Origin: Escherichia phage P1
DNA: 64,000 nucleotides
Sequence record: MH445380.1
Strand: one strand, 5' to 3'
Positions 55,887 through 59,554 of this stretch are shown one piece after another (the stretch's first letter is position 1; the number at the start of each line of letters is the position of its first letter). Below the pieces are notes generated by a model, which saw nothing but the letters and a program-made list of their open reading frames with translations, did no database searches and had not been told where the DNA came from. The position numbers and the translations under genes were made by a program.

Positions 55887-56542
55887 CTACTCTAACGACA
55901 GCATACTTACAGCAATTGGTATTTTTTGCAGGCGAGGCTACTTGTCATCCTGACGCAAACTATTTATTGGAATTTGAGAGGTTAGCGTCACCCGGTATCG
56001 TTCTGGAACTGGCCCAACAGGTGCTGGCCTTGAGACAAAAAGAGCAACATGAAAGTAATACGTGTAGATTGAATTTTGAGCAGTGGCTGGAACAGCAACG
56101 CGGGAAAATCGATGTGGACTGTGGTTGTGTGTCCACTGAAACATTCATGCACTGGCTGCGGGTAGCTTACGAGGCTGGCAACTATCCGGATATTCCGGAT
56201 AGTTCGGTGCCAGCGCCAGGAAAGGGCGTCACCGGTGAACGTATCCGCATTAAGCCGCATGTTTATCGCGAACTGGTTAACCGTCTCCACGATACAGCGA
56301 TCAAGTGTGCTGGCACTCAGCAATTACGAGAAAGAATTAGCCGTGTTTTGGGCGACGTTATTACGCCATATCATCATAAACAAGCCGAGAAAAGCGGTCT
56401 GGAAAGGTGTCATCTTGAGGCAGCATTAAACATTAAGCCGGGGCATACGCTAGGCATTATTGATGCACTGTTGGTTCATAAGATGGCCAGGGCTTTATTG
56501 TCGTTGGTGGACGCTGGTGATACAAGCGAGGGTGAAGTATGA
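55868..56542 (+). CDS. Hypothetical protein
   Basis: 224-aa ORF. Confidence 0.5.
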   Translation: MAQKEMTTLTTAYLQQLVFFAGEATCHPDANYLLEFERLASPGIVLELAQQVLALRQKEQHESNTCRLNFEQWLEQQRGKIDVDCGCVSTETFMHWLRVAYEAGNYPDIPDSSVPAPGKGVTGERIRIKPHVYRELVNRLHDTAIKCAGTQQLRERISRVLGDVITPYHHKQAEKSGLERCHLEAALNIKPGHTLGIIDALLVHKMARALLSLVDAGDTSEGEV

Positions 56543-56901
56543 GAGTTGCAGATCACATCAAACACCTTGAAAGAATTATCGAAAACGGTGAACTCTTAAG
56601 AGATCAGATGAGACGCACGGCAGAAGCCAGGGAGGCGATAATCCGCAGTCAGGCTGGTAAATTAAAGCAATTGTCAGAGATTAACACGCTATACAAGAAC
56701 AGACGTAACCGGGCGGTGATGCGGCTTCAGAAAGCACGTAATGAAATTAAATTGGTGGAGGCAAAACTGAAAAAACAGATCCAGCGTTACGATCAGCAAG
56801 ATGCTTTTTATGCCGCCATCAAGGCGGCTGCTAATGAAATAGGCATCTGGAAGTTGCTGGTGGAGAAAGCAAAGACGAAGTTAAATGCCAACGAAAGCTG
56901 A
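56539..56901 (+). CDS. Hypothetical coiled-coil protein
   Basis: 120-aa ORF, last gene of the plus-strand accessory block. Confidence 0.5.
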   Translation: MRVADHIKHLERIIENGELLRDQMRRTAEAREAIIRSQAGKLKQLSEINTLYKNRRNRAVMRLQKARNEIKLVEAKLKKQIQRYDQQDAFYAAIKAAANEIGIWKLLVEKAKTKLNANES

Positions 56902-56976
56902 ACTACAGGTGCCCACCAGCACATACAGAAAATGATTGTTTCCACATCAAGGAGATTTTAATGTTTCACTGAAACA

Positions 56977-57114
56977 TTAAGTAAGCCAGTGCATAATTCC
57001 ATTTTTTACTGACCTTAAAAGCAAAATCAAAACGATGATGAGGATAATAGCCAGAATCTGGCTAATAATAGGCGCATCTAAAAATGCACTCAGGAACTGA
57101 AAAAAAGCGTTCAT
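56977..57114 (-). CDS. Small hydrophobic peptide (45 aa), candidate membrane toxin
   Basis: Hand translation MNAFFQFLSAFLDAPIISQILAIILIIVLILLLRSVKNGIMHWLT; AGGA Shine-Dalgarno 9 nt upstream; its stop lies inside an inverted repeat (56958-56980). Below the ORF-track threshold. Confidence 0.3.
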   Translation of the reverse strand: MNAFFQFLSAFLDAPIISQILAIILIIVLILLLRSVKNGIMHWLT

Positions 57115-57976
57115 TCAGGTGGTTCCTTGTCAAATGTAAAGGTGCACTTGCTCACGTTGACGTAGAAACCCAACCCCTATATAGTTGGATTCGGTGAATG
57201 AAAGTCGTTAACGTGAGCTTACGGCACATGTTTTCGGAAAAACATCAGGGAACGGCTAATTCCTTGATGCGGGTGGGGTCTGTAATGCAGACCCTATCTA
57301 TTAACGTCATGATTGCATCTCAAATTTTCTCCTTATCTTCAATTAATCTACATTCATTTCATCTGTTAGCCACCACAATATGTAGAAAATGGCCCTCTTG
57401 CAAGTGCATAACTTTGTGGATAACTCAGGAAGGAAAAAGTGGCTTTCGCGCACCTTCGGTCAGACAAGGTGTCCGGGAAAGTCAACGCAAAGAAAAAAAT
57501 TGTTAAAAATAACGTTTGTTGGAATTGTATATTTTTATCCCCTTCAATGGTTAGCATTCTATTAACATCTTTTTTTAGAGACAGAAAAACATATCGTAAC
57601 AACATATATACAGTGTTAAGCGGCGAGTATTATCCTGCGGTGGGAATTCTGGGCGCTGTTAGATTCGACTTTCTCAGCAGGATTACATCGTCAACTTGCG
57701 ACGTTGCCGTATGACTTTCGTGTAATAGGTGACAATGATGCGGCTAGTGAGTTACTTGTGAAGTTTTTCGGAAAAGGTTTTGTGGCCTCGGATCTTGATG
57801 AGCTACAGCAACATGAAGTGTCTAATTTGATTTTTAGCCATAGCCAATAAGCCTCCCTCCTCCATCAAGGCCACAATTTGTGACCTTAAACAATTTGTTT
57901 TCTGCTTTTTCTTATTTGAGAAAATAACGTTGTTGACAGCTAATAGGCTCGTTGTTGTTATACATGCCTGTATAGA

Positions 57977-58333
57977 TTATGACCGTAAATTATTAGCGGA
58001 TTTTAAGCCATATTCACCGTTGTAGAAATTACTCATGTTCCATTCATTAGGAAGTTCTTTTCTGTCCAATGTATAGTGGCGCACGATATAACGATCTTCA
58101 TCTTCTTCGATGGACAGGCGGACATAGCCAATGTGAATCACCGATACGGGCGGTGTTCGTATTGCATAGATGTCGCGGAGATATACCGGCAGCTCGACAA
58201 ATGCATCAGGTGCATCTGTGATGCTCGTTTTTTCACAGTATTCATATAACGCATCGTTGATATCGTTAAGAGATTCATGATCGTATATTTCCAGGTAATT
58301 ACCGCGATCGCGATGGTACTCGATTTTAGCCAT
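57977..58333 (-). CDS. Hypothetical protein (second gene of an unassigned two-gene operon)
   Basis: 118-aa ORF starting immediately after the stop of the upstream gene; no recognisable motif. Confidence 0.55.
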   Translation of the reverse strand: MAKIEYHRDRGNYLEIYDHESLNDINDALYEYCEKTSITDAPDAFVELPVYLRDIYAIRTPPVSVIHIGYVRLSIEEDEDRYIVRHYTLDRKELPNEWNMSNFYNGEYGLKSANNLRS

Positions 58334-58918
58334 TCAAAATCCCCTGTTATCGTTTTGCATTTCTCTAATCCGGTTCAGAACTACTTCATGCTGGACTTGG
58401 ATAGCGGCTTTTTCGTTTTCAAGCCGGGCAATAGACATCTCTAATTCTTTGCTGTACCAGGCGAGCTGGGCCAGGTTCATCCGGTTGTGGTCGAGAGTTG
58501 GAGACACTTCGACGCGATCCCTTTCTTCCTGCTTTAATGAGAAGAGATTTATCTCATCCCTTGAGGAAAATTCAGCAACAATTTCTTGTTGATGATCCGG
58601 TCGCTGCGGCATCCTCGCCAGTATAAATGGCGGTTCTTTTGAAAACATGAATGTCGGTTCAGACCGTGTTTTTACCCAGCTTGCCTGCTGTCTTTCGGCA
58701 AGTTCACAGGCTTCATCATAGTTATCTGCCAAACAAAGCACGGATGGACGGTCCCACGCCCCACCATTCAGACAATAAACTACAATTTTCCCGTCAGGTT
58801 GTGTAACCCCATATGGATGGTCCCACCAGGCGTCCAGCTGAGCTTTAGAGCGTTTCTCGTTAGGAGTGCAGTCAAAATTTTTGGGCAATACAGGATCGAG
58901 AGGAATGCGGGCAGGCAT
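58334..58918 (-). CDS. Hypothetical protein (first gene of an unassigned two-gene operon)
   Basis: 194-aa ORF transcribed divergently from humD; C-terminal third is coiled-coil-like; no recognisable catalytic motif. Confidence 0.55.
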   Translation of the reverse strand: MPARIPLDPVLPKNFDCTPNEKRSKAQLDAWWDHPYGVTQPDGKIVVYCLNGGAWDRPSVLCLADNYDEACELAERQQASWVKTRSEPTFMFSKEPPFILARMPQRPDHQQEIVAEFSSRDEINLFSLKQEERDRVEVSPTLDHNRMNLAQLAWYSKELEMSIARLENEKAAIQVQHEVVLNRIREMQNDNRGF

Positions 58919-59055
58919 AGCTAATTCCTTATTAACTGATTGGCAACGAGGTTACGCTGATCCGTTGGTGATGAATAGTAGCAAAGAGCACAAAATCATC
59001 AGCGGTGGTTGATGTACGTAACGCGTTTGCACCAAAGGTGTCTCTTTAATGTATA

Positions 59056-59071
59056 CTGTATAAATGAACAG
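59056..59071. promoter_or_regulatory. LexA (SOS) box
   Basis: CTGTATAAATGAACAG fits CTG-N10-CAG with an AT-rich centre; 22 bp upstream of humD. Confidence 0.65.
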
Positions 59072-59092
59072 TATTATTGAGGTGAAAACGCT

Positions 59093-59482
59093 ATGGGCTT
59101 CCCTTCTCCTGCGGCGGATTATGTTGAAAGCCGAATTTCTCTTGATCAGCAACTAATCAGGCATCCATCAGCAACCTACTTCATGCGGGCAGCTGATAGC
59201 CATCACCGTGAGGGAATATTGCAGGGTGCTTTGCTGGTGGTTGATTCCTCGCTTACTCCGGTTGATGGTTCTCTGCTTGTGTGCGCTATGGAGGGTGAAT
59301 ATCGCATAAAGAGATACAGGAAGTATCCGCGCCAGCACCTGGAGGATTTAAGCACCGGGAAGAAAGAGGCGTTACCAGTAGATGACGATGGATACACGGG
59401 CAGTAATGCTGTTTTTGGTGTGATCACTCATGTCATCAATGATGCCAGAAGTGGGGAGTTTGATGATTGTCCGGTTATTTAA
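59093..59482 (+). CDS. humD: UmuD'-like SOS mutagenesis protein (S24 peptidase family)
   Basis: 129-aa ORF with the LexA/UmuD C-terminal domain pattern, preceded by a LexA box. Confidence 0.85.
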   Translation: MGFPSPAADYVESRISLDQQLIRHPSATYFMRAADSHHREGILQGALLVVDSSLTPVDGSLLVCAMEGEYRIKRYRKYPRQHLEDLSTGKKEALPVDDDGYTGSNAVFGVITHVINDARSGEFDDCPVI

Positions 59483-59554
59483 GCTGCAAAGGGCTGGTGC
59501 TTTATGCCTGTGAAGTTTATAATTGTGTACACATAACGAGTACACGAGGTGTTT

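Follow-up and report, generated by a model that had tools for sequence, protein, structure and literature searches.

The stretch between positions 56,902 and 59,092 of the Escherichia phage P1 record MH445380.1 raises the question of what two coupled minus-strand genes contribute to a phage-plasmid when they lie beside humD in unusually AT-rich DNA. We analyzed 64,000 nucleotides of this record, referred to here as the window. The initial annotation, made from the sequence alone, described the pair as an unassigned operon, proposed that it might be an acquired defense cassette under SOS control, and ranked it as the strongest candidate for something undescribed. We found that this P1-like phage-plasmid carries, at this locus, the P7-type allele of the variable region between pmgV and humD. 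The two genes are the already annotated lxr and upf93.6. The best overall explanation is probably that they form an accessory pair coding for dispensable proteins that bind other proteins.

Identity of the two genes

The pair consists of two minus-strand open reading frames (ORFs), and the coordinates first reported for them agree exactly with the ORF list. The larger, at 58334–58918, codes for 194 amino acids. It is lxr, annotated as upf94.2 in P7 and as "LexA regulated function" in MH422554. The smaller, at 57977–58333, codes for a 118-residue protein with an isoelectric point (pI) of 4.8 and is annotated in P7 under the name upf93.6. An AAGGA Shine-Dalgarno sequence is found 8 nt ahead of the lxr ATG. 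The lxr stop codon abuts the upf93.6 start codon (TGAATG), and a GGGGA Shine-Dalgarno sequence lies 7 nt before that start. This arrangement makes translational coupling from lxr to upf93.6 plausible.

Both proteins belong to known families. The 194-residue protein is identical to P1 Lxr (P1_gp102) at 175 of 189 residues (93%, E = 1e-136), and phrog_6164 matches it over residues 1–194 of 194 (E = 6.6e-135), which places it in the P1 Lxr family. Upf93.6 is matched by phrog_5797 over residues 1–118 of 118 (E = 3.8e-77), and P7 has an annotated coding sequence at the homologous place. The two PHROGs families are both of unknown function. It had been claimed that neither hot nor lxr was present. 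This was wrong for lxr and correct for hot: a tblastn search of the whole window with P1 Hot (theta) gave a best E of 1.1, and no theta-like ORF (PF06440) was found at the locus. The genes are also not undescribed, as lxr/upf94.2 and upf93.6 are annotated in deposited P1 and P7 records. We found no paper on upf93.6 or upf94.2. The genome annotations and literature we searched assign no function to lxr, which was named solely from its position beside a LexA box.

A P7-type allele in a variable region

We compared the locus to deposited genomes. Positions 56500–59500 match the P1-like genomes MH422554 and MH445381 at 100% identity; identity is 99.6% with Salmonella phage SJ46 and 99.2% with phage P7. 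Homology to reference P1 (NC_005856) stops at 57522 and picks up again at 58351 in blastn alignments. The P7-type segment in between (57523–58350, 828 bp) takes the place of 306 bp in reference P1, which comprise the −10 element of the late promoter LPhot and the hot gene. The right junction falls in the last few lxr codons, so the C-terminus of Lxr differs from that of P1 over the last ~5 codons.

The comparison with individual P1 and P7 genes is consistent with this structure. P1 Lxr is an orthologue whose gene has an identical placement and is transcribed away from humD across the same LexA box, but its downstream neighbor in P1 is hot, whereas here it is upf93.6. In reference P1, hot fills the equivalent slot downstream of lxr, yet it is unrelated to upf93.6 in sequence and lies on the opposite strand, convergent with lxr. 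The two are not strict alternatives, as hot, upf93.6, and lxr occur together in pRHB27-C04_2. The upf93.6 gene of P7 (AAQ07573) corresponds to the one here in both identity and location, within the 3-kb region of 99.2% identity. P7 differs in carrying IS903 250 bp downstream of upf93.6. Overlapping blastn pieces between the window and P7 locate the IS903 target site at 57714–57722, 9 bp that are duplicated around IS903 in P7 and uninterrupted here.

Comparison with a different phage-plasmid lineage (rep_cluster_488) outlines the unit. The plasmid pAVS0968-B is continuous with the window over 57639–59481 at 91.6% identity and has an intact 174-aa toprim-domain gene followed by upf93.6 and lxr. 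Its sister plasmid pEC00678_4 lacks both genes, and there the toprim gene is directly followed by humD. Homology to pEC00678_4 covers 57639–57931 and then 59043–59481. This jump indicates that lxr and upf93.6 come or go together as one block of ~1.1 kb (57932–59042, with a right edge uncertain by ~40 bp). We saw the region in at least five arrangements: that of P1; that of P7 and the window; hot with upf93.6 and lxr; toprim with upf93.6 and lxr; and toprim next to humD. Counting PLSDB records that cover at least 80% of the query, the P7-type segment (57523–58350) occurs in 95 and the P1 hot segment in 203, while lxr occurs in 193 and humD in 674. The absence of the block from pEC00678_4 and the lower count for lxr than for humD bear out the view of the pair as a tightly coupled, accessory, and horizontally exchanged unit, divergent from humD in an AT-rich variable region. 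Two papers (PMC6906374, PMC9603915) have already reported that the pap-lxr / hot-lxr interval is low in G+C and varies among P1-like elements.

The DNA beyond humD also varies. Both pAVS0968-B and pEC00678_4 carry host-like apbC and metG genes downstream of humD, where P1 has phd-doc. A metagenomic P1-like contig (L040, 68–745) has genes for a Tad2-like protein (anti-Thoeris family) and a dUTPase just past doc and the next small gene.

The LexA box and the humD promoter

The divergent neighbor humD (59093–59482, plus strand) codes for a UmuD'-like S24 peptidase, according to its annotation and a match to Pfam PF00717 (E = 5.7e-9). A perfect CTGT-N8-ACAG LexA box is present at 59056–59071, as first reported, and is annotated as a LexA site in P1 and P7. 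Its full 20-mer in our sequence scan is TACTGTATAAATGAACAGTA (59054–59073), and it is one of only two matches to CTGT-N8-ACAG in the window. The layout of lxr and humD around this intergenic box is alike in P1 and P7. A consensus scan identified a probable humD promoter, TTGCAC-N19-TATACT (59027–59057, plus strand), with both hexamers kept in pEC00678_4. The box overlaps the probable −10 element of this promoter; the humD start is 21 bp away and the lxr start 138 bp away. The same type of scan found no sigma-70-like promoter directed toward lxr on the minus strand, either at the box or in its vicinity.

Other elements separate the box from lxr. pEC00678_4 has no lxr but still keeps both the box and the humD promoter. 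Among 12 Lxr relatives encoded away from humD, an upstream LexA box was found only in a DUF5417-type element (L033), where it is perfect but lies 23 bp from a divergent gene. There was none upstream in L034, L036, L041, L043, or any short-form context examined. As first reported, the box is real and lies in the shared intergenic region, but the proposal of SOS control is not supported beyond this position. Because the box sits on the humD −10 element, persists without lxr, and is missing before most lxr relatives, LexA control of lxr is no more than a possibility suggested by position. The box was presumably built for humD, and from the contexts compared LexA control does not appear to be a trait of the Lxr N-domain family. 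Upstream of the Salmonella Lxr homolog (L034/L035, ~3350–3400), an inverted repeat, TTGTTTGTCAACACAAACAA, stands where P1 has the LexA box. Another repressor may use this repeat as its operator.

Lxr belongs to a large plasmid family

We could assign no domain to either protein, in agreement with the initial annotation. Scans of both against Pfam, NCBIfam, PADLOC, and PHROGs returned only the unknown-function PHROGs and sub-threshold noise, and no solved structure matched either one. Lxr has two parts: approximately residues 1–125 form a conserved N-domain, and residues 149–192 form a long C-terminal helix or coiled coil. In an AlphaFold2 model with a predicted local distance difference test score (pLDDT) of 87, the C-terminal extension forms one long helix over residues 149–192. 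Alignment of the N-domain defined a core of ~125 residues with 21 invariant positions (WWDHP...CLNGG.WDR...QRPD). The C-terminal extension is limited to P1-type proteins.

The N-domain is widely distributed and, as a short form, stands alone on hundreds of plasmids and phage-plasmids. Lxr has 105 close relatives, and searching 1.84 billion cluster representatives with a profile gave 474 matches, each a cluster at 50% identity. The N-domain was detected by tblastn on 890 PLSDB plasmids, 564 of them conjugative and most of them from Klebsiella, E. coli, and Citrobacter. The median pI across 31 relatives is 5.0. Ten long Lxr-domain proteins from the profile search were scanned and contained no informative fusion. 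Many distant members of the family carry an N-terminal extension of ~60 residues. There is no Pfam entry for this family, and our analysis identifies the Lxr N-domain as a large family of plasmids and phage-plasmids.

Genes for the N-domain occur in diverse neighborhoods. In a Klebsiella phage-plasmid, a short-form lxr and an adjoining HEPN-Toprim gene are surrounded by replication genes (RecA, gp32, exonuclease, and DNA polymerase III alpha). On plasmids from Pseudomonas, Agrobacterium, and Xanthomonas (L014–L018, 5001–6040; CP039914.1), the N-domain gene is the middle member of a three-gene operon, preceded by a gene for ~66 residues and overlapped by a serine resolvase gene. A mer transposon lies immediately upstream of this operon in L015. 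On alphaproteobacterial conjugative plasmids, the N-domain gene follows traG and an SNase-like gene near ArdC. Other copies are found near Fic, RepA, and resolvase genes or by Fic genes and an Eco57I-like methylase gene, and one in Salmonella has umuC and a Tus-like gene no more than 5 kb away. Two small proteins encoded beside Lxr-family genes in unrelated elements (L023, 4409–4705; L033, 2518–2772) have a common A-x-x-LGGGY-x-L motif. The BLASTP match between this pair covers just 17 residues (E = 0.002).

Upf93.6 and its pairing with Lxr

The Upf93.6 family is narrow, with 18 clusters and 186 plasmid records. Its members have a pI of 4.5–5.4. A relative with 38% identity adjoins ssb, a TrfB-like gene, and ccgAII on IncN plasmids, and other relatives occur without Lxr near ccdAB on Salmonella plasmids. 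Judged by these matches, Upf93.6 is small and acidic, and both IncN and F-like plasmids encode relatives of it. The Lxr-Upf93.6 pair is conserved at 63% and 54% identity, respectively, in the DUF5417-type element L033 and recurs in a similar Citrobacter phage-plasmid (L043). We also found lxr without upf93.6 (in P1, L034, L036, and L039) and upf93.6 relatives without lxr (in L009 and L042), so on present genomes the two genes do not form an obligate pair. Relatives of upf93.6 have another upstream partner, a 320-aa "YdeA"-type protein, which we considered as a possible Lxr-like protein. It showed no resemblance to Lxr, and a homolog search added little.

Possible functions of the pair

The explanation that we favor, and consider probably correct, is that lxr-upf93.6 would act as a dispensable accessory module in which each protein most likely binds another protein and not DNA. 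Dispensability is suggested by the plasmid counts for lxr and humD given above and by a CRISPR interference screen that scored lxr as non-essential for P1 lytic growth (PMC10695390). Protein binding is suggested by the acidic pI values, by searches that found no DNA-binding domain, and by the long C-terminal helix in the Lxr model; families that are uniformly acidic fit protein binding better than DNA binding. As to what the proteins might do, we tentatively suggest, as less likely than not, that they serve establishment of the element or counter-defense, in the manner of plasmid leading-region genes of the ssb, psiB, and ardA/ardC type. This suggestion draws on the association of relatives with traG and ArdC, with Fic, RepA, and resolvase genes, with HEPN-Toprim, and with ssb and ccgAII. 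Leading-region genes likewise code for small acidic accessory proteins of mobile elements, and relatives of Upf93.6 (beside ssb and ccgAII on IncN plasmids) and of the Lxr N-domain (near traG and ArdC) sit among them. The pair differs in having no sequence or fold similarity to characterized members, and in P1 it lies outside any transfer leading region. The comparison therefore concerns a resemblance in possible mode of action and not family membership. A further reading, which we regard as conceivable but doubtful, would make the Lxr N-domain an uncharacterized fold-orphan family, possibly enzymatic, that acts on the machinery of the host or of rival elements (in anti-defense, SOS modulation, or establishment). 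Upf93.6, which is found among IncN leading-region genes as well, would then be another factor of this type, one that became coupled to Lxr in P1/P7-type elements.

Several observations weigh against a protein-binding accessory module with a role in establishment. Plasmid neighborhoods are crowded with genes of this kind, which makes association weak evidence. The Klebsiella phage-plasmid copy stands amid replication genes (RecA, gp32, and polymerase III alpha), and P1's own neighbors, hot and humD, point equally to replication or repair. The 21 invariant polar or aromatic residues of the N-domain could mark an enzyme active site instead of a binding surface, and the structure model of Upf93.6 is poor (pLDDT 61). 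In addition, the product name given to Lxr relatives by the NCBI pipeline is "DNA-binding protein," and Foldseek reported a weak local match to the AP2/ERF DNA-binding fold (1gcc, probability 0.63).

These last two points, the second a local beta-beta-beta-alpha resemblance, could be read to mean that Lxr is a sequence-specific DNA-binding regulator with Upf93.6 as its target gene or co-factor, a reading to which the co-operonic serine resolvase on the Pseudomonas, Agrobacterium, and Xanthomonas plasmids would also lend itself. We consider such a regulator very unlikely. The family is uniformly acidic, and no helix-turn-helix, ribbon-helix-helix, AP2, or other DNA-binding profile matched, despite the family name that the NCBI Prokaryotic Genome Annotation Pipeline (PGAP) uses. 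A role in replication or repair is a stronger contender, though we still think it unlikely. Here the pair would work with HumD and Hot, for example by modulating DNA polymerase V, RecA filaments, or the polymerase III core. In P1-type elements lxr is fixed beside humD and the shared LexA box, with hot and upf93.6 as alternative or joint neighbors, and the Klebsiella copy and the Salmonella copy near umuC and the Tus-like gene fit the same scheme. However, humD occurs without lxr in ~70% of the plasmids that carry it, many Lxr relatives have no repair gene nearby, and upstream LexA boxes are not conserved.

The proposal that the locus is an acquired defense, exclusion, or abortive-infection cassette under SOS control fared less well, and we now consider it quite unlikely. 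Its appeal lies in the surroundings: the unit is accessory, mobile, AT-rich, and adjacent to phd-doc; copies of the Lxr N-domain gene lie by HEPN-Toprim, Fic, and Eco57I-like methylase genes; pRHB27-C04_2 has a type I restriction-modification system ~1.1 kb upstream of hot; and the lxr homolog in L033 has an independent perfect LexA box. A search of PADLOC-DB 2.0 nevertheless matched zero families at E ≤ 1 for Lxr, Upf93.6, PmgV, or the 45-aa ORF described below. No nuclease, nucleoside triphosphatase, TIR, Sir2, or membrane effector domain was found, and both proteins are small, acidic, and devoid of a predicted effector. Relatives of lxr and upf93.6 are found separately and mostly in contexts without a LexA box, which leaves nothing positive beyond the neighborhood. 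A two-gene toxin-antitoxin or addiction module would account for two small coupled genes beside phd-doc and for Upf93.6 relatives near ccdAB on Salmonella plasmids. Yet P1 keeps lxr without upf93.6, relatives of each family are found alone, and neither protein matched a toxin or antitoxin family in Pfam, NCBIfam, or PADLOC. We rejected a type II toxin-antitoxin module, as the two genes are not obligate partners and no domain match was obtained; an addiction role of any kind is extremely improbable.

As a sequence feature, the locus is ordinary, a catalogued allele in a catalogued variable region that is identical to deposited genomes. The payoff of learning what Lxr does belongs to the protein family and not to this window. 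If a function were shown for the N-domain, hundreds of clinical plasmids from Klebsiella, Citrobacter, and E. coli would be annotated at once.

The AT-rich DNA downstream of the pair

The low G+C content noted initially was confirmed. Positions 57115–57976 have 40.3% G+C and the whole of 56902–59092 has 42.0%, whereas the window averages 47.5%. Relative to stretches of equal size, the two values rank in the bottom 2.1% and 0.6%, respectively. lxr itself is compositionally average (47.7% G+C). The stretch from 57115 to 57976 had been described as containing no credible ORF. This description must be qualified. The 174-codon toprim frame, annotated intact in pAVS0968-B and pEC00678_4, is not complete here, but the stretch holds a remnant of that gene, a structured block at 57156–57335, and four small upf ORFs annotated in P7. 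The remnant (57650–57850, plus strand) is truncated at its 5' end and retains only codons 109–174, the last 66 codons, plus the stop. In tblastn, 58 of these 66 residues (88%) are identical to the intact protein (E = 5e-37), which makes the supposedly ORF-free stretch partly a truncated pseudogene. Downstream of the remnant, a hairpin, AAGGCCAC-AATTT-GTGACCTT (57867–57887, plus strand), is kept in the alignments to pAVS0968-B and pEC00678_4 and is likely the old terminator of the toprim gene. The AT-rich DNA downstream of the pair is recombination debris, made up of the truncated toprim gene and non-coding sequence homologous to P1.

The block at 57156–57335 (plus strand) is conserved and non-coding, and we consider it a candidate small, structured RNA. 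It opens with a near-consensus promoter, TTGACG-17-TATAGT (57157–57185), known in P1 as PupfN. The block is 88–97% identical to pRHB27-C04_2, while its flanks are 57–80% identical. The plus strand of 57190–57345 folds into three hairpins (z = −3.38), one of which has a compensatory U-A to C-G change. An Rfam scan of 56500–59300 gave no match. Among 5426 complete E. coli genomes, 216 contain the block, which lies on a plasmid in every instance except one and comes in only three sequence variants.

Two smaller features flank this block. A strongly hydrophobic 45-aa ORF, MNAFFQFLSAFLDAPIISQILAIILIIVLILLLRSVKNGIMHWLT (56977–57114, minus strand), is not annotated in reference P1, where it is 95.6% identical, and is kept with conservative substitutions in a plasmid at ~79% DNA identity. 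Its product could be a small membrane protein, and a role resembling that of a type I toxin is speculation. A perfect DnaA box, TTATCCACA, is present at 57415–57423 on the minus strand, at a place homologous to one where P1 annotates predicted DnaA boxes; the window contains seven matches to the loose DnaA consensus, about the number expected by chance.

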